Shown in pieces: positions 17,001-57,500 of a stretch of 64,000 nucleotides of DNA. The stretch lies in NCBI GenBank assembly GCA_029940535.1, contig JAPYUM010000001.1, positions 76,773-140,772 on the forward strand. The letters are read 5' to 3'. The DNA comes from Vicinamibacterales bacterium. Its GTDB lineage: Bacteria; Acidobacteriota; Vicinamibacteria; Vicinamibacterales; UBA8438. The position numbers and the translations under genes were made by a program. The first letter of the stretch is position 1. Each line of letters begins with the position of its first letter. The notes under the pieces are model-generated. The model was not told the DNA's origin. It saw nothing but the letters and a program-made list of their open reading frames with translations, and did not search any database.

Positions 17001-18695
17001 GTTGCGCTCGGGGCCCAGCGTCGAGCGCATGTCGGTGACGAGCTCTTCGCGGATGGCATCCAGCGGCGGGTTCGTGACCTGCGCGAAGAGCTGCTTGAAG
17101 TAGTCGAAGAGCAGCCGGGGCCGATCCGACAAGACCGCCAGCGCGGTGTCGGTGCCCATCGACCCAATCGGTTCGAAGCCCTTCGCGGCCATCGGGCCGA
17201 TCAGGATGCGGAGATCCTCTTCGGTGTATCCGAACGCATGCTGACGTCGTCGCAACGTGTCCCGGTCTGTGGCGACCGTGTCGGGGACGTCCGGCAGATC
17301 ACGCAAGTCGACCAGTTGGGCGTCCAGCCACTCTTGATACGGGTGCTCGGCCGCCAACTCCGTCTTGATCTCGTGATCGTCGATGATGCGGCCCTGCGCC
17401 GTATCCACCAGAAAGATCCGTCCCGGCAGTAACCGTCCTTTCACCAGGACGTCTTCCGGCGGGATATCCAGTACCCCGACCTCCGACGCCATGACGACCA
17501 GGTCGTCCTTGGTGACGTAGTAACGCGACGGCCGCAGACCGTTACGGTCGAGCACGGCGCCCACCACGGTGCCGTCGGTGAAGGCGATCGAGGCCGGACC
17601 GTCCCACGGCTCCATCAGCGAGGCGTGGTATTCGTAAAACGCTCGTCGATCCGGGGGCATTGACTCGTGCTTGCTCCACGGCTCCGGAATCATCATCAGG
17701 ATGGCGTGAGGCAGCGAGCGGCCCGTCATCACCAGGAACTGGAGGACGTTGTCGAACGTGGCTGTGTCGCTCTGACCTTCTCTTGCGACCGGAAAGAGCT
17801 TCGACAGATCGTCACCGAACAGGTCGGATTCGCACAACGCTTCGCGAGCGCGCATCCAGTTGAGGTTGCCCCGTAGCGTGTTGATTTCGCCGTTGTGGGC
17901 GCAGTACCGGTACGGGTGGGCGAGTGGCCACGACGGGAACGTGTTGGTGCTGAAGCGCGAGTGGACGAGCGCCAGCGCCGACTCGACGTCCGGGTCCACC
18001 AGGTCCGGGAACATCCCCTCGACCTGGTCGGCGATCAGCATGCCCTTGTAGACGATCGTCTGCGACGAGAGACTCGCGATATAAAACAGACTCGCTTCTT
18101 CGAGCTGCAACGCGCCGACGGCTCGCGCGAGCCGCTTCTGAATGACATACAGCTTTCGTTCGAATCGTGCCCCCGCGTCCGGGCCGCCCTCCAGCCGTGT
18201 GCCGCGACCGATGAAGACCTGCCGCATGGTCGGTTCACCGCTGCGCGCGCTGTCCCCGAGGGCGCTGGAATCAGTGGGCACGTCTCGCCAGCCGAGCAGG
18301 CTCTGGCCCTCCTCGTGCACGATCCGGGTGACGAGTTCCTCGATCCGGGCGCGTTCATCGCGTCCCCGGGGCAGGAACAGCATGCCGACGCCGTAGTCGC
18401 CGGCGGCGGGGAGCGAGAATCCCAACGCCGCTGTTTCTCGTCGGAAGAACTTGTCCGGTATTTGTAACAAGAGGCCGGCGCCGTCGCCGGTGTTGGACTC
18501 GCAGCCACAGGCTCCTCGATGCAGCAGGTTGAGAGCCACTTCGAACGCCTGCTCCACCAGCTTGTGGGTGCGGACGCCTTTGATATTCACGACGAACCCG
18601 ACACCGCAGGCGTCGTGCTCGTGCCGTGGGTCATAGAGTCCGGTGGCACCGGGCGGTGCAGTTGGCGGCAGGGCGTTCGCATGCCTCGTCGTCAC
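14091..18695 (-). CDS. gltB: Glutamate synthase large subunit
   Basis: 1534 aa. N-terminal amidotransferase EHDACGVGF, followed by the FMN/Fe-S central domain and a C-terminal GXGXG beta-helix region. The GTG start overlaps the LysR stop (GTGA). Confidence 0.95.
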
Positions 18696-19732
18696 AGGAG
18701 TGCCCCCCGGGCCCCGACGACGGCGGCGGTCGGGTCGTCGCTCGGCGGCGGTGTCTGCGTACTCGCGGGCGGCGCAGCGTCGACGGCGACCGCGGTCGGC
18801 CTCGATACTGGCTCGGCGGGGGCGTCAGCGGTGCTGTTCCGGAGCAATCTGATGAATTCGGTGACGGCTGGGTTCAGTCGGCGCTTCCGGCGATGCACGA
18901 TGCTGAGTGGTCGAACCAGTGGCGGTTCTCCGACCGGGAGCAGTAGGCGGGCCTGGATCAGCGTGCCACGCCGCACCTCGCGGCGCAGGGTCGGCTCCGG
19001 CAGAATGGCCACCCCCGCGTCTTCGTCGACCGCTTGCTTGATGGTCTCGATGTTGTCGAACTCGGCCGCGATTTCCACTTCGACATCGTGGCGCCGGAGG
19101 AACTTGTCGATTTCACGCCGGGCGGGTAGCGCCCGATCGAGCGCCACGAAGCGCTCTCCGGCGAGCTCGTGCGGCCTGACCCCACCGTGGTTGGTGGCCA
19201 ATCGCGCGAACCGGTGGTCTGGCGTGCAGGCCACCACCATGGCCTGATTCTTCCAGGGAATCGCGGTGAGCTCTCGGCCTGAGCTGACGAACGACAACAG
19301 CCCGAGGTCGGACTGATCGCTGAGAACTCGCGCGCGGACCTGGTCGGGGTGCATGTACTCCAGGTCGACCGCCGCGCCCGGCACCCGGGCTCGGAACTGA
19401 TCGATGTATCGACTCAGATGTTGCAGACCCACGGAATAGATCGATGCCAACCGCACGGTGTGGCCTGCGGGATTCTGACGGCGCCGGACCGCGTCCTCGA
19501 GCTCGTGATACCGCTCGACGATCTCCTGACAGCCCTTGAAAAAAATCTCGCCCTCGGCCGTCAGTTCCCACGGTCGCTTGGACCGGTCGATCAGCTGGGC
19601 CCCCAACTGTTTCTCGAGTTGACGCACGGCTTGACTCGCGGCCGATTGGCTAACAGAGCTCGCCAACGCGCCGCGGGAGAAGCTCCCGTGGCGGACCACC
19701 TCGCAAAAAATACTGAGCGTCTCGACGTGCAT
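18692..19732 (-). CDS. LysR-family transcriptional regulator with a Pro/Ala-rich C-terminal tail
   Basis: 346 aa. N-terminal wHTH ([36 protein letters not shown]) plus an LTTR substrate-binding fold. The last ~50 aa are low-complexity (P/A/T). 4-nt overlap with gltB. Confidence 0.85.
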
Positions 19733-19745
19733 GGGACTAAAGATC

Positions 19746-19762
19746 TTATCACACTGAGCTAA
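19746..19762. promoter_or_regulatory. LTTR-box-like dyad (TTA-N11-TAA) in an AT-rich divergent intergenic region
   Basis: TTATCACACTGAGCTAA lies 14 nt upstream of the LysR start, within a locally AT-rich stretch (19733..19800). A perfect TATAAT at 19848..19853 faces the PQQ gene. Confidence 0.3.
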
Positions 19763-19910
19763 TGTTCAGCCTGTCTGATATAAGTATGTCTAATATATAT
19801 CGCGACCGGGAGGAGACCGATCGGCCCCCCGGTAGCCGTCTCGGCGCTATAATTCATCCCTCTCCCATGCCCTGTTACCGACCTACATCGCACCGACAAG
19901 TGGAGTCCTC

Positions 19911-21989
19911 ATGCCATCTGTGATCCGAATCAGTGTGGGCATCGCCCTGATCCTTGCGGTCGTCGCTCAGACGAGCGACATCCGAGCCCAGGCGCCAGAG
20001 CGCGGGCGTGGCTATCCGTCCCAGGACTGGCCGCTGGCCGGCGGGAACTGGTCCGGCACACGCTACTCGACCCTGGTCGACATCACCCCGGCCACCGTCG
20101 ACCGACTGGGCGGTGCCTGGGTCACGCGTCTGGAGGGCGGAGCGGCGTCGCGCGCGACACCGATCATCCTCGACGGTGTGATCTATCTCACCGGCGGCGC
20201 GAACGTGTTCGCGATCGATGCCCGGACCGGCGGTCCGCTGTGGCGCTGGCAGCCGGAGGATTCGGTCGAGAGCGCAGGGATGGTGCCCTCCTGGCAGGGC
20301 GTGGGACTGGGCGACGGACTCGTGTTTGTCGGACTCCGCAGCGGACAGGTCGCGGCTTTGCGTCAAGAGACGGGCGACATGGTGTGGGTGGAGTCGGTCG
20401 GCAGTGACCCTCCAGAAGCGGGCGAGGCGGTGACCACGGCGCCCATGTATGCCGCCGGGCGCGTCTTTGTCGGACTGGCGAATGGGGACACCGGTGGGCA
20501 AGGGCGCATCATCGCCCTGGATGCCGAAACCGGTGAGACCCAGTGGACGTTCTTCATCGTGCCGCGCCCGGGCGAGTTCGGCCACGACACCTGGCCACAG
20601 GACTCAGACATGTGGGAGCTGGGCGGCGGCGGCGTGTGGCTCGTCGGGACCGTGGACCCTGACCTCGACCTGGTCTACTTCGCCACCGGCAATCCGGCGC
20701 CAATGTTCGGCGGCGAGATTCGGGCGGGCGATAACCTCTTCACGGCGTCGGTCGTGGCCCTCGACCTCGCGACCGGGGAACGGCGGTGGCACTACCAGGT
20801 GGTTCGCCACGACGTCTGGGACGCCGACATCGCAACCCCGCTCCTGCTCTACGACCACGACACCGGGACGGGCGAGCCGCGCAAGGCTCTGGCCGCGATG
20901 CGCGCCGACGGGGTGCTGTTTTTGTTCGATCGAGAAACAGGTGAGCCACTGACCGCAATCGAAGAACGGGCGGTTCCTCAGGATGAGTATCAGCGTACGG
21001 CGGCGACCCAACCGTTCCCGGTGGGGACCGAGAGCATCTTGCCGGACTGCGCCTTCTGGCGCGACCGCGTGCCGCCCCCCTTCGAACTGAGCTGCAGTGG
21101 CTTCACGCCACCGATGGTGAACGAGCACACCATCGTGGCCCCAGGCGTGCCGATTCCACGGGTGCGGGTCACGCCGATGTCCTTCAGCCCCCAGACAGGC
21201 TACATCTACGCACAGGGGCAGGCGACAGTCGGGCGAGCCCGTCGGTTCGAAGATCCGTTCCACTGGAGACTCGACGACAACGAGCTCACCCTACCTGACC
21301 CGGTCGGCATCCTCGCCGCCGTTGACACCCGGACCAGCCGCGTCGTCTGGAAGCATGAGATGCCGGCGTCATGGCTCGGCACGAGCGGGCCCCTGACCAC
21401 CGCCGGCGGTTTGATGTTTCGAGGCTCGGCCGGCGGTCAGGTGGAAGCCTACGACGCCCGGACCGGGGCGCGGGCGTGGACCTTCCGCACCAGCCCGACC
21501 GGCGCTCTCGTGCGCCCCGGGCCCGCGAGCGTCTACGAGCTCGACGGGCGGCAGCACATCGCCGTCGCCATGGGATCCGAGCTTTGGTCGTTCGCGCTGG
21601 ACGGCGAGGTCCCGGCGCGCGGGGAGCCGGTGCTCGACCCCTGGGAGGACTACGAGCGACCCCAGCCGGCGCCGACCGCGACGCGGCGGATCGAAACGTC
21701 CACCCTCATTGAGGGGACGCGAGGCATGGTGGGCGGGACTCGCTACGGGTTCGACGAGCACCACTTCAACCCCACCCGGGCGCTCGTCACCCGGGGGGTG
21801 CGTCTCCAGTTCATCAACAACGGCGAGATCACCCACACCATCGCCGCCCGTGACGGCAGCTGGAGCATCGGCCCCGTTGAACCCGCGACGTCGGCATCCG
21901 TCACGCTGAACGATCTCGGGACGTTCCTCTATCACTGCACTGATCACCCCTGGGCCATCGGTCAGATCACGGTCGAGGACAGACCCTGA
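19911..21989 (+). CDS. PQQ-dependent dehydrogenase (beta-propeller quinoprotein) fused to a C-terminal amicyanin-like cupredoxin domain
   Basis: 692 aa. Signal peptide, then the quinoprotein N-terminal signature DWPLAGGNWSGTRYSTL..IT..TV..LGGAW and repeated propeller W-motifs. The C-terminus FINNGEITHTI...FLYHCTDHPWAIGQITVE aligns with amicyanin WINREAMPHNV...YDYHCTPHPFMRGKVVVE. Confidence 0.75.
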   Translation: MPSVIRISVGIALILAVVAQTSDIRAQAPERGRGYPSQDWPLAGGNWSGTRYSTLVDITPATVDRLGGAWVTRLEGGAASRATPIILDGVIYLTGGANVFAIDARTGGPLWRWQPEDSVESAGMVPSWQGVGLGDGLVFVGLRSGQVAALRQETGDMVWVESVGSDPPEAGEAVTTAPMYAAGRVFVGLANGDTGGQGRIIALDAETGETQWTFFIVPRPGEFGHDTWPQDSDMWELGGGGVWLVGTVDPDLDLVYFATGNPAPMFGGEIRAGDNLFTASVVALDLATGERRWHYQVVRHDVWDADIATPLLLYDHDTGTGEPRKALAAMRADGVLFLFDRETGEPLTAIEERAVPQDEYQRTAATQPFPVGTESILPDCAFWRDRVPPPFELSCSGFTPPMVNEHTIVAPGVPIPRVRVTPMSFSPQTGYIYAQGQATVGRARRFEDPFHWRLDDNELTLPDPVGILAAVDTRTSRVVWKHEMPASWLGTSGPLTTAGGLMFRGSAGGQVEAYDARTGARAWTFRTSPTGALVRPGPASVYELDGRQHIAVAMGSELWSFALDGEVPARGEPVLDPWEDYERPQPAPTATRRIETSTLIEGTRGMVGGTRYGFDEHHFNPTRALVTRGVRLQFINNGEITHTIAARDGSWSIGPVEPATSASVTLNDLGTFLYHCTDHPWAIGQITVEDRP

Positions 21990-22078: not shown

Positions 22079-22423
22079 CTACGGAAGGCGCGGGTTACAT
22101 AACCGTTCTTGATCGCGGTATGCCTCGAACATGCGGAGCAGCCCATAGAAGACGACTCCTGAGCCGACATATGCGACTCGAGCCGGCGCTGGCCAAAGCC
22201 GACGTCCTAGTTCGGTGATGCGTTGGATTTCAACGGCAGAGAAGTGGAAGTACTCGCCAACGCCCCAAAGTCGGCGGTCCGACCCGCTCCGCCTGGCGAC
22301 CTCCTGGACCACGGCGAAAAGGTCGGGTAGCGAGAGCTGACGTTGGAGTCGGATCACGGTCACGCCGTCGAGTTCCTCCAGAACGTAGCGGGTGAGGCGG
22401 GAATCGCGACCGACTGGTTTCAC
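22079..22423 (-). CDS. Hypothetical protein (small alpha/beta, possibly STAS/SpoIIAA-like)
   Basis: 114-aa ORF whose GTG start overlaps the ankyrin gene stop (GTGA). No motif recognised. Confidence 0.4.
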   Translation of the reverse strand: MKPVGRDSRLTRYVLEELDGVTVIRLQRQLSLPDLFAVVQEVARRSGSDRRLWGVGEYFHFSAVEIQRITELGRRLWPAPARVAYVGSGVVFYGLLRMFEAYRDQERLCNPRLP

Positions 22424-24069
22424 GGCAGGTCGGCGCCGATCGGGATGTCACGCAGGCGCTCCTGAACGGTGCCTGGGATGCCCAAATGCGTGGCGGCTCC
22501 GAGCGCCGCTAGCAGCGCGGCGGTTTCCGGCCAGCTCTGGAACTGGAAGGACTGTTTGGCGCCCTCGGCCATCCGAAACGCCGTTCGTCCGCGGAAGTCT
22601 CGCGCGTCGACCGCGGCACCTCGCTCCACAAGGTAGGCGATGACCTCGTTCAGCCCGCGAAGCGCCGCGCCATGCAACGCCGTGAAGTCAGCTTCGTTGA
22701 CCGCGTTGACATCGGCGCCCGCCTCGACGAGGACCTGCACGGCTTGCTCCGCGCTCGGTGACCGGGTCCCGCGCGGCTCCCGCGGTCGATACGTGCAGCG
22801 ACCAAGTCCTGCGGCAGCCATCAAGGGTGTCGTGTCGTCATCGGTCCGCAGGTGGTGGTCGGCACCCGCTGCGAGCAGCGCCCGCAGGATCGCCGTGTTC
22901 TCGCCGCGGTTAGATGCATAGGCCGCCACCCACAGCGGCGTGGCACCCCGAATGTCTCCGGTGCCGCACGAGAACGGCTCGAACGCCCCCTTCGTCGGGT
23001 AGCCGATGTAACTCATGAACATGGCTGACGTCGTGATTCGCGCGTCCGGCAGGGCGCCTCGGGCGAGGAGTGCTTCGACGAGTGGCACACGACGCTCGGC
23101 CACGAGCGCGGTTCGCCCGATCCCGCCCCGAAGATACCCCGGGTCGCCGCCATGTCGTCTCGACCAGTCGTGCAGCCAAGTTCCGACGCTCCCCGCGGCG
23201 GCGTGCAGCGCACTCACCCCGCCCATCGAGCCGTTCGGATCGGCGCCGTGCTCGAGCAGAAACAGGGCAAACGCATCCTGGCGGTTGACAATGGCGTACG
23301 GCAGCACGTGCGTGTCATCCGACCCGGTCTCGTTGACGTCGACGCCAGCGGCCAGCAGTGTTTCCGCAAGCGCGATGTCGCCAGCGGCGGCGGCAAGCAG
23401 CAGCGGCGTGAAGCCGTCTGCCGTGGCGGCACCCGGCGCCGCGCCGCGGCTGAGCAGGAGGCGGGCAACCCCGTGATGAGACTCCGACACGGCCCACATC
23501 AACGCCGTGCTCCTGGTTGCCGTCGTCGCCGCATTGACCTCAGCGTCGGAGGCCAGCAGCGCCTCGACCACCTCGACACTCCCGGTTCGCGCGGCGGTCA
23601 TGAGCGGCGTCAGGCCACTGGTCTGGCTGTTGTTCGGGTTCGCTCCGGCCGCGAGCAGCGTCTGAACCATCAGCACGCTGGCGTTCTCGGCCGCCCGCCC
23701 GAGCGGGGTCACGCCATGATCATCGGCGGCATTGACGTTCGCGCCGGCACGCAGAAGCATGGCGGCCGCGTCCGAATCGTCCCAGTGGGCCGCCCAGAGA
23801 AGCGCCGTCGCGCCGTCGGCTCGCGCGGCGTTGACGTCGAGACCTTGTTCGACCAGTGTGAGCACGGTCCGGCGGTCCTGCGCCGCCGCGGCGCTCACGA
23901 GCCGCAGGTCCTGGCCGGCAGCCAGCCCGGCGCCCGTGCTGAAGACCAGCGCAACCACAGAGGCAACAACCCGCACCGCCCCACTATAGTCGACCCCGGA
24001 CGACCGGGCCGAATTTCGAGAGTCCTGCTCAGGGGTGGCCACGATGCTCGATATATTCCGACCGGTCAC
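22420..24069 (-). CDS. Ankyrin-repeat protein with N-terminal signal/anchor
   Basis: 549 aa. Hydrophobic segment VVASVVALVFSTGAGLAAG, then at least 10 ankyrin repeats (G.TALLWAA..., DHGVTPLGRAA, GLTPLMTAA, GFTPLLLAA, FTALHGAA...). Confidence 0.85.
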   Translation of the reverse strand: MTGRNISSIVATPEQDSRNSARSSGVDYSGAVRVVASVVALVFSTGAGLAAGQDLRLVSAAAAQDRRTVLTLVEQGLDVNAARADGATALLWAAHWDDSDAAAMLLRAGANVNAADDHGVTPLGRAAENASVLMVQTLLAAGANPNNSQTSGLTPLMTAARTGSVEVVEALLASDAEVNAATTATRSTALMWAVSESHHGVARLLLSRGAAPGAATADGFTPLLLAAAAGDIALAETLLAAGVDVNETGSDDTHVLPYAIVNRQDAFALFLLEHGADPNGSMGGVSALHAAAGSVGTWLHDWSRRHGGDPGYLRGGIGRTALVAERRVPLVEALLARGALPDARITTSAMFMSYIGYPTKGAFEPFSCGTGDIRGATPLWVAAYASNRGENTAILRALLAAGADHHLRTDDDTTPLMAAAGLGRCTYRPREPRGTRSPSAEQAVQVLVEAGADVNAVNEADFTALHGAALRGLNEVIAYLVERGAAVDARDFRGRTAFRMAEGAKQSFQFQSWPETAALLAALGAATHLGIPGTVQERLRDIPIGADLP

Positions 24070-24097: not shown

Positions 24098-24727
24098 TCA
24101 AGCCTCGTGGGAAGCGGCCAGACGTGAGGCGACCGAGCCCAAAGTCGCTGGCGTTGGAGCCTGAGCCCTCACGGCAAACGGCGCGCCGGGGTCCGGTTCG
24201 CGCGTGAGTGACCAGTCCGCCTCGCCTGACACCGTGTGTAGGAACGCCTCCAGAGCCGGACGGAACGCGGTCAAAGTCTCGGTCGTGTTCGGCGCGAGGA
24301 GGCGGTCGTTGGCGACGCACGCGATGTCGTTCCCCGCGAACCGCACCGGCCCAGGAAGCGTGGCGTCCGTTTCCAGCAGACGCGCAGCCTGCACCAGGGT
24401 ACGGCCAAGCCCTCCGAGCCTCTCGGCGAGTGGGCCCTCGAGCGGCCGGGTGCGTGTGTATTGGAAGCCGAGTCGACCGTCCGTCCGGTCGAGCGCGTAC
24501 TGGCCCTCGTGGGCGACCAGGAGCACCGACGGCCCGGTGGGTAAGTGTGTGTAGTCGGCCACGTCAATGAGGAGCCCGTCGACCGCCTGGGTCTGGATCC
24601 ATCGATGAAAGACCGGAATCACGTCACGTGGGTCGAGCGTCGAGTCGTCGGTGAGGAAGACCTTCAGGGCGATGCGCTGCAGGTCGTTGACGTGCGTCGA
24701 CGGGGTAGGCGTCGTCACGTCGTTCAC
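24098..24727 (-). CDS. Hypothetical protein translationally coupled to sulfite reductase
   Basis: Start placed at GTG 24727..24725, which overlaps the sir stop TGA 24726..24724 (GTGA). 209 aa with no recognised family. The ORF-track start at 24805 would lie inside sir. Confidence 0.5.
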   Translation of the reverse strand: MNDVTTPTPSTHVNDLQRIALKVFLTDDSTLDPRDVIPVFHRWIQTQAVDGLLIDVADYTHLPTGPSVLLVAHEGQYALDRTDGRLGFQYTRTRPLEGPLAERLGGLGRTLVQAARLLETDATLPGPVRFAGNDIACVANDRLLAPNTTETLTAFRPALEAFLHTVSGEADWSLTREPDPGAPFAVRAQAPTPATLGSVASRLAASHEA

Positions 24728-27012
24728 GAGGGTCTCCCCGCGCCGGTTGTCGCGTCCAAGGGCGGCGGCATCACGACCGGCTGGGCCGCGAGTCGGGCCT
24801 GACACGCATGGGTGGCCTCGACGAACAGCTGGGCTTCTTCGATGAGCTGTCGCGCGGTGTCGAGGCCGTCCGCCGGCGTGCTGCGCTCGTGGCGGCGGAA
24901 CAGGTATTGGGCGAACTTCCCACCGGCAAATCGATCGAAAAATATTTCGGTGTCGAAAAAACGGCGGCGAAATTCTGAGACGATCTGCTCCGCGTCGTCC
25001 GAGATGTCGATGTCCTCTGTCTTGATCAGCCCTCGGGCCGCCTGCAGCATGGCGCCGTAGGCGAGCGCGTCGGCTCGCTCGAAGTTCCCCTCCTCCAGCT
25101 GAAGTTGTCCTTCAAAAATCTGGCTCTCGGCGCCGGCCAGGTCGAACTCGGTCAGCGACACGACCTCGCCGGCGCACTCTCCGACCCCCATATCGCCGAT
25201 GCCGAACTCCCGAGGGTCGCCCCAGTCGCGATAGTAGCTGGCATCGACTTCGTGTGCCGGCACCGCCATGAGGTCGTCGAGCATGTCACGTAGGGCCCGC
25301 TTGCCGACCCGGGCCGTGAAGGCGTAGAAGCTTTCGGCGCCGTCGCGTTCCGCGACATAGCGGTCGGTGATGCGTCGTACGACCTCTGGAATGTTCTTGG
25401 ATGGCACCGCCGCGATCGCCAGTCCATACGCGCCGCCGTTGTCGACCCACTTCCCGCCCAGCACGACCTGGAAGTGCGCGACGACATGGCCACCCACGTG
25501 GCGGCTGACGCCGTAGAACCCGAGGTCGCTGATGTGGTGCTGCCCGCACGAGTTGAAACAGCCGCTGACCTTGATACGAAGCCGGCGCACCGACTCGTCC
25601 ATCGTGTCCAGCTGGTCGGCCAGCCGCCGCTCGAGCTCCGCCGCGAGCCCGCGTGACGACGCGATACCAAGCTTGCACGTGTCCGTGCCGGGGCACGCGG
25701 TGATGTCCGCGATCGATTCGGCCCCTGGTCGCGCCAGGCCGATCGCGTCGAGCTCGCCGTGCAGCGCGGGCAGGTCGGACTCGCGCACCCAGCGCAGCAC
25801 GATGTTTTGTTCGACGGTCGCCCGCACCGCGTCGCCGACGAAGCGCCGCGCCACGTCCGCCAGCTGCCGAAGCTGGTCGCTGCTGAGGTCGCCGAGTGGC
25901 AGGCTCACGGTCGCAGTGACGTATCCGGGTTGTCGCTGATGGTAGACGTTGGTCCGGGCCCAGGCCTGAAAGGCGGGCGAGCCAGCCTCATCTCCCAACG
26001 CCTGGCCGGTCTTGAGCGGCTGCTCGCCGTACGCCGGCAGGGCGTCCAGATATCCGGTCCAGCGGTCGTCTCCCGGCAGGGCGGCTCGTTCCTTCCGCAC
26101 CAGACGCCGAAATTCCTCGAGGCCGAGTTGCGCCACCAAGAACTTGATGCGGGCGCGGGCGCGATTCTTCTTCTCGCCCAACCGGGCGAACACCCGGGAC
26201 ATGGCCTGGAGTGTCGGCAGAATCTCGTCTTCCGCCATGAATGGTTCGAACAGCTTGGCCTCGTGTGGCACGGCGCCAAGTCCGCCACCCACATACACCT
26301 CGAAGCCGCGCTGCGTCACGCCGTCGACCTCTTTGGTCACCCCGATCGCGCCGAAGTCGTGCATGTTGACGAGTCCGCACGCGTGCTGCCGGCATCCGGA
26401 AAACGCCACCTTGAACTTGCGGCCGAAGTCCTGGGCGTCGGGGTGTCCGAGGAGAAAGCGCATGGACGCCTGCGCGTAGGGTGTGACGTCGAACGCCTCG
26501 TCGCGGCAGATGCCGGCGATCGGACAGGCGGTGACGTTGCGCACCGTGTTCCCGCACGCCTCACGCGTGGTGATGCCGACCGCCGCGAGCCGCCGCATCA
26601 AGTCCGGCGTGTCGTCGATGTGCACGTAGTGGAGCTGTATGTCCTGACGCGTCGTGATGTGCACGACCCGGTCGCTGTACTCCTCAGCCAGCTCGGCCAG
26701 GGTCTCCATCTGGTCGGTGGTGAGCCCGCCGAAGGGAATCTTGATCCGTTGCATCCCGGGAGCGTCCCAGACGGTGTCGGGTCCCTTGGTCTGTCCGCTC
26801 GATGGGAACGGCAGCGGTTTGACTCCAGTGCCGTCATTGCGCTGGCCGTTGTCGTAACGTTGCCCGTACGCCCCACGCCGCAGGCGGGTCTCGGCGAACA
26901 CCTTGTCGTCGATCTTGCCCTGTCGTTTCAGGGCCATCTGGTTCTCGTAGGTGTCGATCTCGCGTCCCAGATCGTCTGGCACGCGGTCGCCGAGAGCGTC
27001 CTTCCAGGTCAT
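24724..27012 (-). CDS. sir: Assimilatory sulfite reductase (ferredoxin-type, siroheme/4Fe-4S) with a ~200-aa C-terminal extension
   Basis: 762 aa. Two nitrite/sulfite-reductase ferredoxin-like half domains and the Fe-S/siroheme Cys motifs (TACPG.DTCK ... SGCFNSCGQHH). Context is cysH plus siroheme synthesis genes. Confidence 0.85.
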   Translation of the reverse strand: MTWKDALGDRVPDDLGREIDTYENQMALKRQGKIDDKVFAETRLRRGAYGQRYDNGQRNDGTGVKPLPFPSSGQTKGPDTVWDAPGMQRIKIPFGGLTTDQMETLAELAEEYSDRVVHITTRQDIQLHYVHIDDTPDLMRRLAAVGITTREACGNTVRNVTACPIAGICRDEAFDVTPYAQASMRFLLGHPDAQDFGRKFKVAFSGCRQHACGLVNMHDFGAIGVTKEVDGVTQRGFEVYVGGGLGAVPHEAKLFEPFMAEDEILPTLQAMSRVFARLGEKKNRARARIKFLVAQLGLEEFRRLVRKERAALPGDDRWTGYLDALPAYGEQPLKTGQALGDEAGSPAFQAWARTNVYHQRQPGYVTATVSLPLGDLSSDQLRQLADVARRFVGDAVRATVEQNIVLRWVRESDLPALHGELDAIGLARPGAESIADITACPGTDTCKLGIASSRGLAAELERRLADQLDTMDESVRRLRIKVSGCFNSCGQHHISDLGFYGVSRHVGGHVVAHFQVVLGGKWVDNGGAYGLAIAAVPSKNIPEVVRRITDRYVAERDGAESFYAFTARVGKRALRDMLDDLMAVPAHEVDASYYRDWGDPREFGIGDMGVGECAGEVVSLTEFDLAGAESQIFEGQLQLEEGNFERADALAYGAMLQAARGLIKTEDIDISDDAEQIVSEFRRRFFDTEIFFDRFAGGKFAQYLFRRHERSTPADGLDTARQLIEEAQLFVEATHACQARLAAQPVVMPPPLDATTGAGRPS

Positions 27013-55181: not shown

Positions 55182-57500
55182 CTAAAAAAACCGCACCGAG
55201 TAGCCGAACCTCACGCCGCGTCCAATCTCCGGCGCGAAGTCCTTGATGAACGAGGTGTGGTTCCGATACAGCGCATTGGTCAGGTTGTAGCCCGTGACGC
55301 TCACGATGTGCGCTACGTGCGGCCGGGCCAGGATATAGGAGGCCGTCAGGTTGAACACCGAGTATCCACTGGTCTCGGTCTCATCACGGAATACTTGATC
55401 TTGCTGGGCCGCGATGATCAGCTCCGGACTGACCGTGAAGCCTCGGTAGGGCAGGTCCAGACTGATCCGCCCCCGCAGGGGCGGGATTCGTGGAAGGGCC
55501 TCACCGGTGTCCAGTTCGGCGTCCACGAAACCGACACCCACGTTCACCCAGAACGCGTCACCCACCCGCGCGCTCGCATCGGCATCGAAACCCACGAAGC
55601 GGCTGTCGGCTTGGCGAAACTCGGCTACCCGAAGCCGATCAACGACGGCCCCGGTGATCGATGCGAACACGAAATCGTCGATGTCATACACGTAGGCGTT
55701 GACGCTGCTCCTCGCTCGTGGGGACTGATACCGCAGACTGACATCGAGTCCCACCGTGGTCTCGCTCCCGAGGTCTGGATTGCCCACCTCGAAGACGAGG
55801 TTGCCCACATGCGGACCGAAGTTGTACAGCTCTTCCAGCGCGGGGGCGCGGTGCGAGCGCGTGACATTGGTGACGAATGCTATGTGGGGGCCCACGTCGG
55901 TCTGGAGACCGGCCGAGACCGAGCTCCCGGTGAAGTCGCGGTCGCGCACCGGGGACGCGATCGGTGCTCCCGGCGCCCCGGCAGACTCTGTGTCCAGAGC
56001 TGCACGCGGCAGCACGCTGTAGCTGTTGCGTTCAAGCCGGCCGCCGAGCTGCACTCGGTATCGCCCCAGTTCCAGCTCCTCGTAGACGAACGCCGCGAAC
56101 GAGGTCTGGTCAGTGGGAGGCGTCAGGGCTTCCTCTCCGACGGCGATGAAGTCACGCGCTTGAGTCCACACGCCGAACTTGCCGGCCAGGCGGGCCGTCT
56201 GCCGCTGATCCACCTCGGCTCGCAGCACGTAGGTGCGGTTGTCGAATGCCGTTCCGAGGCGCTTCGACCCACCCTCGGTTTCGACCTCGGTGTGTTCCCA
56301 ATCCACCACATTGAAAACCAGTCGGACCCCATCCACCACCGTGTGGTTCAGGTTCCGCATGCCGATGTCGAACCGGCCCACCCGGCGGCGTGAGTCCAGC
56401 TCTACCTGGACGTCGTCTTCCAGGGTGTCCGGGGAGCCGACGGTGTCGATTCCGGCGTCCACGTCCGCCGTGAGCGCGCCGACGAACGGGACACCGAACA
56501 GGCTGTTCTCGGCCGTGAAGCCGCCGCTGGCGAACAGCCGGTCGCCGAAGTAGCCGATGCCGGCGCGCGCCGAGTGGAGCTGGGTGGCCGAGTTCTCGAT
56601 CGCGCCCTGAGGCGTGCTGTAGTCGTCGGTGGCGCGCGTCCCGCCACCCAGCCACAGGATGGCGTTGCCATCCGTATGCTGCAAGCTGGCGTTCGTGCCC
56701 GCCTGCTGGTCGGCCGACCCGGTGTCGGCGCTCACCTGTCCGCGCGTCCCATCGGTCATCGAATCGAGATAGCTCTCGTGCGGCGTGATGGCATTGACCA
56801 CACCACCTACTGCGTTCGACCCGTACAGGAGCGTGGCCGGACCCCGCACGATTTCCACTCGATCCAGGCTGTTCGGATCGATGGTCACGCCGTGGTCGCC
56901 AGACTGGGCACCCAGGTCTCCGGTCCGGATCCCGTCCTCCATGATCAACACCCGGTCGCCGTCGAAGCCGCGGATGATCGGCCGGCTCGAGCCTGGTCCG
57001 AAGCTGCGTTTTGCGACGCCCGGTTCGTTCTCGAGCGCGTCCGCCAGCGTTGGCTGCGGGTCGGAGATCAGCTCGAACGAGTCCAGCGTCGAAATCGCGT
57101 TGAACGCGTCGAAGGCGGTGGTCCGTCCGCCCGCGGTCGCCGTGACCGTCAACTCTTCATGGACGGTGGATAACCCGAGCGTGAAGTTGGCGGTGACATC
57201 GGCGCCGGATGGGACGGCTACGCTCTGGCGTGCGGCGCTGAGATGCTCGCGTTGCGCGATAACCTCGTGCGAGCCTGGTGGGACGTTGGTGATCTCGTAG
57301 GTGCCGTCTTCCTCGGTCAGTGTCACCAGCGACGGACCCACCACCAGCACGACCGCGCCGTGGACCGGCTCCCCCGCGTCACCGAACGTGACCGCACCGC
57401 GGATCGTGCCGCTCTCCTGCGCGTCGGCAGACGCGTGCATCAGCGCGACGACGCAGATGGCCGACAGAATCCGGTACGGGCCGCCGCGTTGCCTACCCAC
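55182..57500 (-). CDS. TonB-dependent receptor with an N-terminal carboxypeptidase-regulatory-like domain
   Basis: 772 aa. Signal peptide, GTIRGAVTF...V (CarbopepD_reg-like), plug domain and a C-terminal beta-barrel ending in ...RFGYSVRFF. Confidence 0.85.
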   Translation of the reverse strand: MGRQRGGPYRILSAICVVALMHASADAQESGTIRGAVTFGDAGEPVHGAVVLVVGPSLVTLTEEDGTYEITNVPPGSHEVIAQREHLSAARQSVAVPSGADVTANFTLGLSTVHEELTVTATAGGRTTAFDAFNAISTLDSFELISDPQPTLADALENEPGVAKRSFGPGSSRPIIRGFDGDRVLIMEDGIRTGDLGAQSGDHGVTIDPNSLDRVEIVRGPATLLYGSNAVGGVVNAITPHESYLDSMTDGTRGQVSADTGSADQQAGTNASLQHTDGNAILWLGGGTRATDDYSTPQGAIENSATQLHSARAGIGYFGDRLFASGGFTAENSLFGVPFVGALTADVDAGIDTVGSPDTLEDDVQVELDSRRRVGRFDIGMRNLNHTVVDGVRLVFNVVDWEHTEVETEGGSKRLGTAFDNRTYVLRAEVDQRQTARLAGKFGVWTQARDFIAVGEEALTPPTDQTSFAAFVYEELELGRYRVQLGGRLERNSYSVLPRAALDTESAGAPGAPIASPVRDRDFTGSSVSAGLQTDVGPHIAFVTNVTRSHRAPALEELYNFGPHVGNLVFEVGNPDLGSETTVGLDVSLRYQSPRARSSVNAYVYDIDDFVFASITGAVVDRLRVAEFRQADSRFVGFDADASARVGDAFWVNVGVGFVDAELDTGEALPRIPPLRGRISLDLPYRGFTVSPELIIAAQQDQVFRDETETSGYSVFNLTASYILARPHVAHIVSVTGYNLTNALYRNHTSFIKDFAPEIGRGVRFGYSVRFF

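Follow-up and report, generated by a model that had tools for sequence, protein, structure and literature searches.

Quinoprotein dehydrogenases pass their electrons either to a cytochrome c domain fused to the same polypeptide or to separate cupredoxins, and an established chain with a cupredoxin runs from methylamine dehydrogenase to amicyanin and on to cytochrome c551i. The gene described here lies in a stretch of 64,000 nucleotides from a marine acidobacterium, a Vicinamibacterales bacterium (assembly GCA_029940535.1, contig JAPYUM010000001.1, positions 76,773 to 140,772; hereafter the window) and encodes, in an open reading frame (ORF) of 692 amino acids (aa) that ends in a TGA stop (19911..21989; + strand, as for all features of the gene below), an exported protein in which a propeller of the pyrroloquinoline quinone (PQQ) type is fused to a cupredoxin. 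A natural fusion of this kind would represent a third solution to the wiring of quinoproteins. The architecture is apparently undescribed so far, and no description of a PQQ-cupredoxin fusion was found in the open-access literature searched.

On balance, we consider it rather probable that the protein works in the periplasm as a dehydrogenase dependent on PQQ and probably also on a lanthanide, and that it hands electrons to the copper of its own cupredoxin and from there to an external acceptor, with a copper site that lacks the axial Met and is tuned by His617. The propeller would be a divergent PQQ-type dehydrogenase, binding scavenged PQQ together with a trivalent lanthanide (probably) or possibly Ca2+, and would oxidise an alcohol, an aldehyde or a sugar. 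The two electrons of reduced PQQ would leave singly to a copper bound by His642, Cys676 and His679, and the copper would deliver them to an external periplasmic acceptor, possibly the fused cytochrome c in the case of the three-domain relatives presented below. The cupredoxin would in this way take the role played by the cytochrome c domain in type II enzymes or by free amicyanin or azurin in other quinoproteins, and its copper site would be a non-classical type-1 centre in which His617, contributed by another strand, probably lies in or beside the room left by Met and acts as a ligand or by way of a bound water. An earlier note on this DNA had already proposed a 'quino-cupro-protein' in which a cupredoxin replaces the haem domain, a proposal whose architecture is supported by the profile, fold and family evidence given here. 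The occupancy by PQQ, lanthanide and copper is inferred, as are the substrate, the contribution of His617, the acceptor role of the cupredoxin, and both the route and the direction taken by the electrons.

Fold and active-site residues of the fusion protein

The start codon is backed by 120 homologues of the same length (66-99% identity, 96-100% coverage), and a GGAG motif is found about 7 nt upstream of the ATG. The N-terminus MPSVIRISVGIALILAVVAQTSDIRAQA (about residues 1-28; 19911..19994), read by eye directly from the sequence, shows a basic residue, a hydrophobic core and AxA-type motifs and represents a putative Sec signal peptide; since this region has no Cys, the protein would not be a lipoprotein. 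It is followed by an eight-bladed beta-propeller of the PQQ-dehydrogenase type (about residues 37-565; 20019..21605), recognized by Pfam PF01011 and by matches in the PDB, by a poorly conserved inter-domain linker (about residues 566-589; 21606..21677) with a predicted local distance difference test score (pLDDT) below 50 at residues 566-573 of the full-length model, and by a C-terminal cupredoxin domain (about residues 590-690; 21678..21980) delimited by a tail profile, an AlphaFold2 tail model and Foldseek, the coordinates 21678-21989 corresponding to residues 590-692 plus the stop. This profile, fold and family evidence backs the layout that had been read from the sequence before, namely a secreted quinoprotein-like propeller of 692 aa ending in a cupredoxin domain of about 100 aa. 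Cysteines are found at positions 380, 395 and 676 only, so that there is neither a vicinal Cys-Cys ring nor a CxxCH motif in the protein.

The assignment of the propeller rests on a Pfam PF01011 score of 263.7 bits (cut-off 26.7; E=4.9e-78) and on the similarity of the query to solved enzymes, with E=1e-62 over residues 36-555 for the quinohaemoprotein alcohol dehydrogenase (QH-ADH) 1kb0 and E=3e-58 for PedH (6zcw). The PDB matches 1kb0, 1kv9, 1yiq and PedH ranged from E=1e-53 to 1e-72, PedH being the best profile match (about 1e-71). Conservation was considered over a close family of 196 non-redundant members and a deeper branch of 69 (265 combined), the latter keeping the same key residues at 45-58% identity with the query or P0243. 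Within the close family, the propeller residues Arg81, Trp128, Asp193, Trp243, Asp304, Asp306, Arg331, Cys380 and Cys395 are invariant. Trp243 (20637..20639), in a GGGGVW segment that aligns with GGGtmW of 1kb0 and GGaapW of PedH, occupies a conserved Trp position that we take to be that of the PQQ-stacking Trp, while Asn261 (20691..20693; 195/196 members) aligns with the metal-ligand Asn, its TGNPAP context matching tGNgsP in 1kb0 and tGNPAP in PedH. The segment Asp304-Ala-Asp306 (20820..20828) contains the aligned catalytic-base Asp and the extra Asp of the lanthanide type, since VWDAD aligns with WDFD of the lanthanide-dependent PedH (6zcw), whereas Ca-type quinohaemoproteins have WDYT or WDFT. 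An additional Asp two residues past the catalytic one is a marker for lanthanide-dependent PQQ dehydrogenases (PMC11996626), and Asp306 stands at exactly that distance from Asp304. Arg331 is found one residue ahead of the aligned Arg/Lys in PedH and 1kb0. The absence of PQQ-binding residues from the propeller, which the earlier note had named as an outcome that would speak against its proposal, was not what the alignments revealed, Trp243, Asn261, Asp304, Asp306 and Arg331 all being kept.

The propeller also carries a family-specific insert (about residues 345-417; 20943-21161) with a VPPPF motif, which aligns poorly to solved PQQ dehydrogenases. It includes the pair Cys380...Cys395 (21048..21095), both residues being present in 196/196 members and presumably joined in a disulfide. 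The insert could form a lid, or the disulfide could substitute for the absent Cys-Cys ring.

The tail of the query alone scores below the Pfam cupredoxin cut-offs (PF00127, 16.7 against 21.2; PF13473, 14.6 against 27), and relatives exceed these thresholds, as in P0292 (26.6 and 27.4) and P0353 (26.4). A profile built from 23 family tails and searched against the PDB scored best with the C-terminal cupredoxin domain of Nitrosopumilus 9cck (E=5e-16). Amicyanin followed over its residues 18-105 (E=3e-8 to 1e-7), and there were weaker matches to the Nitrosopumilus cupredoxin 5fc9 (E=6e-7) and to plastocyanin (E=2e-6). The AlphaFold2 model of the tail (pLDDT 89, predicted template modelling score 0.80) is all-beta, and Foldseek assigned it a probability of 1.00 against cupredoxins including amicyanin and plastocyanin. 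The structural matches were led by 9cck (template modelling score, TM, 0.74; root-mean-square deviation 1.4 Å) and 5fc9 (TM 0.76), followed by amicyanin, including its M98A mutant 2idq, which is an engineered precedent for a site without Met. The cupredoxin fold suggested for the tail was thus supported by the 23-tail profile, the AlphaFold2 model and Foldseek. As for the claim that the tail aligns with amicyanin, the alignment itself holds, while amicyanin does not stand as the nearest relative, the closest solved structure being the thaumarchaeal domain 9cck. Besides, the amicyanin equivalog NCBIfam TIGR02657 gave the query 19-22 bits against a cut-off of 110, and no mau genes occur in the list of genes within 10 kb on either side of the fusion gene. 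On these alignments, the tail is a cupredoxin in its fold and retains three ligands out of four, the axial Met being the one that is absent, and it is not an amicyanin orthologue.

The copper site and the 617/682 pair

The first putative copper ligand, His642 (21834..21836), lies in FINNGEITHTIAA, and FLYHCTDHPWAIGQITVE contains the putative ligand-loop Cys and second His (Cys676-Thr-Asp-His679; 21936..21947) together with Ala682 (21954..21956). HMMER alignments placed His642, Cys676, His679 and Ala682 opposite amicyanin His53, Cys92, His95 and Met98, reproducing the matches to the first-His motif and to the Cys-x2-His-x2-Met loop that had previously been proposed from the sequence, and Ala682 also falls on the Met of HPWMKG in 9cck. 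His642 is present in 190/196 close members, Cys676 in 193/196, and His679 and Trp681 in 195/196 each, and the deeper branch has the complete His/Cys/His set in 69/69 members. For the earlier note, ligands not conserved among homologues would have spoken against its proposal; each of the three is instead kept by at least 97% of the close homologues and by the whole deeper branch. The note had also read Cys676 and His679 as kept and the Met position as Ala, a reading borne out by the alignment and extended by the finding that Ala is the usual state of the family (169/196 close members; 230/265 in the combined set). The occurrence of Ala in 230/265 members indicates a family trait and not a one-off mutation. 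Family members that do bear a Met place it exactly at 682 (HPWMIG or HPWMVG). Among 635 related cupredoxin domains, taken from the best 150 of 19,789 representative proteins that matched the tail profile at E<=0.001, the combination His-Cys-His-Met was found in 460 and His-Cys-His-Ala in 16, nine of which are fragments of the fusion family itself.

Two other residues were considered for a role in the site. Glu/Gln685 was ruled out as an alternative axial ligand, since Met, where present, is always at 682 and the loop has the same length as in amicyanin and 9cck. His675, considered as a Cys-His bridge like that of nitrite reductases and also rejected, is present in 193/196 of the close family but variable in the deeper branch.

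The residue that changes together with the axial position is His617 (21759..21761), found in a family-specific DEH motif and aligned to amicyanin Met28. Generic cupredoxin domains have Phe, Asn, Tyr or a similar residue at this position, and His occurs there in 14 of the 635 related domains, almost always alongside Ala at the Met position. The 617/682 states over the 265 members are His/Ala in 220, Tyr/Met in 22, Tyr/Ala in nine, Tyr/Ser in eight, His/Met in four and others in two. Leaving these two sites aside, the identity between Tyr/Met proteins and the nearest relatives of the His/Ala type is 93-97%, and the tails differ at 7-11 of 106 positions. On a neighbour-joining tree, both sites changed together on 4 of 528 branches, compared to about 0.1 expected from 11 and 6 changes (Poisson P ~1e-5, with neither branch lengths nor errors of the tree taken into account). 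His/Ala was reconstructed as ancestral, so that Tyr/Met appears to be a reversion to the canonical cupredoxin state. Propeller positions 232, 237 and 537, tried as a proxy for a domain interface tracking the 617/682 switch, turned out to be clade markers that are common to neighbouring His/Ala sequences.

The coupling suggests that His617 occupies or lines the space of the missing Met, as a direct ligand or by way of a held water. His617 is therefore our candidate for a replacement ligand or second-sphere partner, and it adds a specific option to the copper geometry, which the earlier note had left at a trigonal site or an exogenous or alternative axial ligand. Natural sites without Met offer two precedents (PMC12109610), since the purple cupredoxin of Nitrosopumilus and nitrosocyanin have an axial water and fungal laccases have an axial Leu or Phe. 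A bolder version, which we put forward only tentatively and regard as less probable than its failure, is that of a novel copper centre in which the axial Met has been deleted (Ala682) and His617 from another strand serves as fourth ligand or as holder of an axial water, giving a His3Cys or an open 'type 1.5-like' site wired to a lanthanide-PQQ site without a Cys-Cys ring; such proteins would be the first quino-cupro-proteins, with repeated toggling between His/Ala and Tyr/Met or Tyr/Ser.

A copper site has occasionally been lost in the family. H642R is found in P0100 and P0101, and H642R together with C676S in P0083, always alongside Tyr617, while the tails of P0019 and P0089 are frameshifted, which suggests that the copper domain is dispensable or decaying in a minority of copies. 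These losses, together with the query score below the Pfam cupredoxin cut-offs, are what could be said for a tail that no longer binds copper and is left with a structural or docking function only. We judge that explanation very improbable in view of the conservation of His642, Cys676 and His679 described above and of the conserved HPW motif with its Trp681, and also because the coupled evolution of 617 and 682 points to selection on the environment of a metal site.

The architecture of some relatives extends beyond the cupredoxin. Eight of them carry a cytochrome c domain after it (P0291, P0330, P0343, P0348, P0351, P0353 and P0356, of 813-837 aa, and the fragment P0333), with a CxxCH motif near residues 725-750 and matches to Pfam PF13442 and PF00034; two have the His/Ala and six the Tyr/Ser state at 617/682. 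Neither a CxxCH motif nor a Pfam match to a cytochrome occurs in the query. The strings of propeller, cupredoxin and cytochrome c argue for the cupredoxin acting as a redox relay, and they strengthen the proposal that it is a built-in acceptor in the place of haem. A separate cytochrome partner was also sought, and a hidden Markov model of the fused cytochrome domains had no match in the window and only three in 77 related loci; no conserved separate cytochrome gene adjoining the family genes was found in the neighbourhoods surveyed.

The same comparisons bear on a different function for the copper, namely that the domain is a reactive or ligand-binding site whose copper, left open and accessible to water by the loss of the axial Met, binds or reduces small molecules such as nitric oxide, O2 or nitrite with PQQ electrons, making the protein a self-contained oxidase- or reductase-like enzyme. 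The conservation of the axial Ala across the family would be in agreement with this, as would the second-best structural match of the tail, the purple cupredoxin 5fc9, and the best match, 9cck, a cupredoxin domain of a multicopper or nitrite-reductase-type enzyme. Axial water is documented for purple cupredoxin and nitrosocyanin (PMC12109610), and type-1 centres without an axial ligand can bind exogenous ligands (PMC6115626). Against it, 26 close-family members have Met682 and are 93-97% identical elsewhere to those of the Ala type, so that it is more economical to assume that both types do the same job, simple electron transfer. Moreover, an electron-relay chain is what the cytochrome c fusions suggest, ligands for a type-2 copper are not apparent, and the conservation of His675 does not extend to the deeper branch. 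We thus consider a reactive copper unlikely and continue to favour electron transfer from PQQ to the cupredoxin.

Cofactor supply, distribution and gene neighbourhood

Some observations weigh against a PQQ dehydrogenase wired to its own copper. The propeller scores 308.2 bits with NCBIfam TIGR03075 (PQQ-dependent dehydrogenase, methanol/ethanol family), under the cut-off of 480, and its best NCBIfam match is TIGR04528 (acido-empty-quinoprotein group A), with 314.4 bits, under the cut-off of 650 and over residues 37-349 only, placing it outside both curated families. The vicinal Cys-Cys ring, implicated in electron exit from PQQ in type I and II enzymes, is missing as the earlier note had remarked; it is absent from the query and from 120/121 members, and in the alignments to 1kb0 and PedH the segment C-C-D-V-x-N-R-G of the solved enzymes faces G-M-V-P-S-W-Q-G. 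The same alignments put Gln129 at the position of the Arg following the ring and Arg81 in the place of the Glu/Gln of the E/Q-A-T/Q-P motif. Known PQQ alcohol dehydrogenases bind the metal through a Glu, whose place is taken here by Asp193 (20487..20489; 196/196 members), with NGDTGG aligned to GGAEYG in 1kb0 and GGEFG in PedH. Owing to the missing ring and to Asp193, Gln129 and Arg81, the binding of PQQ and of the metal could differ. No pqq genes were found in the annotated 10 kb on either side of the fusion gene, nor in a sample of larger ORFs from the rest of the window. The only TonB-dependent receptor in the window (55182-57500, - strand), which has an N-terminal CarboxypepD_reg domain, was rejected as a PqqU or lanthanide receptor, its best NCBIfam match being ZnuD-like and far under the cut-off. 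The full-length AlphaFold2 model, built with 27 similar sequences, has a pLDDT of 64, with residues 1-82 and the active-site loops below 50, too low to orient the copper site relative to the PQQ funnel. The order of domains in the three-domain relatives does not fix the order of electron transfer. Finally, amicyanin Met28, the counterpart of His617, is presumably a residue of the hydrophobic surface patch around the exposed ligand His95 and not a ligand.

Several of these points would suit the idea that the propeller is not a working PQQ enzyme, being an 'empty' homologue, one that holds another cofactor or a metal only, or a binding protein, with the cupredoxin in some other redox or copper-handling role. 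The name of the best NCBIfam match, the missing Cys-Cys ring, the exchanges of Glu to Asp193 and Arg to Gln129, and the lack of pqq genes in the sampled parts of the window all lean that way. In contrast, the aligned stacking Trp, the Asn, both Asp residues and Arg331 are essentially invariant over 196-265 members, as expected of a selected active site, and a PQQ enzyme can work without a Cys-Cys ring, as the membrane glucose dehydrogenase does. Among Acidobacteria, the high-affinity PQQ importer PqqU has been reported only in Vicinamibacteria, mainly aquatic ones, that have no PQQ biosynthesis genes (PMC12124388). Such carriers may be cited for an empty propeller, but the absence of biosynthesis does not conflict with the scavenging of PQQ documented for this class, which makes scavenged PQQ plausible here at class level (PMC12124388). 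An inactive propeller therefore seems improbable to us, and a PQQ dehydrogenase passing electrons to its cupredoxin is still preferred.

The family is large and concentrated in one bacterial class. Whole-protein homologues number in the thousands, the best 120 having the same length as the query, and the named sources are metagenome-assembled genomes (MAGs) of Acidobacteria; an identical protein is present in three NCBI MAG assemblies. A pattern scan over one genome per species resulted in 177 confirmed loci, 77 of which were fetched and belong nearly all to Vicinamibacteria/Vicinamibacterales, the closest species-representative locus (L006) being from a marine Vicinamibacteria MAG with 92% tail identity. 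These 77 loci contain 92 tail-bearing ORFs, 80 of them with full-length propeller and tail and the others cut by contig ends or frameshifts. Many genomes have two or three family copies, some in tandem, and tandem family genes or adjoining PQQ-propeller paralogues of 727-aa and 582-aa types are frequent (for example L036, 7898-10318 and 10335-12467; L024, 6106-8169 and 8186-10318; L001, 7948-9855; L002, 7902-9983). This abundance of paralogues is consistent with the repertoires reported for marine Acidobacteria MAGs, with up to 70 genes for lanthanide-type PQQ dehydrogenases per genome, in a study whose main text does not mention a copper domain (PMC11996626). Two members bear the automatic Joint Genome Institute name 'glucose dehydrogenase/plastocyanin', which indicates that annotation pipelines have detected both domains. 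With regard to the tail alone, a word-indexed search returned only 20 short fragments of the same family, and an exhaustive profile search over 1.84 billion representative proteins reached further, its top matches being proteins with 3-10 tandem cupredoxin domains (P0141-P0290; P0141 has 1154 aa and 10 domains). A few of these tandem proteins (P0247, P0265 and P0262) also have Ala at the Met position.

The gene neighbourhood is not conserved across the family, except for the frequent paralogous PQQ-propeller genes and for a gene encoding an ankyrin-repeat protein. In the window, this exported protein (22420..24069, - strand; Pfam Ank_2 and Ank) is encoded next to the fusion gene, and homologues with 37-43% identity were found in 36 of the 77 related loci, 28 of them within 1 kb of a family gene (for example L041, 10714-12204, and L052, 10322-11800). 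It may be a periplasmic partner or a chaperone, an assignment that we make tentatively. Two ORFs flank the ankyrin gene, one of 114 aa (22079-22423, - strand) that overlaps it by 4 nt and one of 235 aa (24098-24805, - strand), and neither has a Pfam or NCBIfam match or a homologue in the 77 related loci. On the other side, a gene for a LysR-type regulator (18692-19732, - strand) is divergent from the fusion gene across a spacer of 178 bp (19733-19910), and its target is ambiguous, because there is also an overlap of 4 nt between this gene and the start of gltB. The fusion gene is surrounded by a nitrogen and sulfur assimilation neighbourhood (5210-34876) that includes genes for GlnD, an ammonium transporter of a marine subtype, P-II, a sigma-54 activator, GltB, GltD, a sulfite/nitrite reductase, siroheme synthesis, CysH and CysN, a context that is not common to other family loci.

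Significance and comparison with known systems

Vicinamibacteria are an abundant soil and marine group, and the family, with at least 177 loci and several paralogues per genome, may contribute appreciably to the oxidation of carbon in their periplasm. The fusion protein would be a compact model for electron transfer from PQQ to copper inside a single protein, and the near-identical proteins in the His617/Ala682 and Tyr617/Met682 states represent a natural mutant series on how axial ligation tunes type-1 copper. A possible use is in bioelectrocatalysis of the kind that requires a built-in mediator.

Among the described systems, type II QH-ADH (1kb0 of Comamonas testosteroni; ADH IIB of Pseudomonas putida, 1kv9) shares with the fusion protein its arrangement along one soluble chain in the periplasm, where an eight-bladed PQQ propeller comes first, a linker follows and a one-electron redox domain of about 100 aa forms the C-terminus. 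This last domain is a cytochrome c in QH-ADH, for which it is a built-in acceptor, and a cupredoxin in the fusion protein, which also lacks the vicinal Cys-Cys ring, has Asp193 for the metal-ligand Glu and carries the Asp-x-Asp of the lanthanide type where QH-ADH has Asp-x-Thr; without a cytochrome domain, it does not belong to the type II QH-ADH family. With enzymes of the PedH/ExaF and XoxF types (6zcw, 6dam, 4mae) it shares the extra Asp two residues after the catalytic one (WDFD in the former, WDAD here), but those have a Cys-Cys ring, a Glu metal ligand, separate cytochromes and no fused redox domain.

On the copper side, amicyanin (1aac, 1mda; M98A mutant 2idq) has the same fold and the same short C-x2-H-x2 loop leading to the Met position, and the M98A mutant has the same HP-x-A sequence as the query, whereas amicyanin itself is a free protein that serves an enzyme with a tryptophan tryptophylquinone cofactor and has its axial Met. 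The chain of methylamine dehydrogenase, amicyanin and cytochrome c551i resembles what is proposed here in that a cupredoxin accepts the electrons of a quinoprotein, and the three-domain relatives mirror its order of quinoprotein, cupredoxin and cytochrome within one sequence. The 9cck domain of Nitrosopumilus maritimus, the best sequence match, has the HPW motif in common with the tail; it differs in its Met (HPWMKG) and in being fused to a multicopper or nitrite-reductase-type enzyme instead of a PQQ propeller. Purple cupredoxin Nmar1307 (5fc9) is a natural type-1-like site with water for an axial protein ligand (PMC12109610), though in a single-domain archaeal protein. The type-1 sites of fungal laccases and ceruloplasmin, like the one proposed here, are His2Cys without an axial Met, a natural arrangement known to raise the potential (PMC12109610); in those proteins bulky Leu or Phe residues exclude water, whereas the Ala of the fusion family would leave a cavity, coupled to His617.

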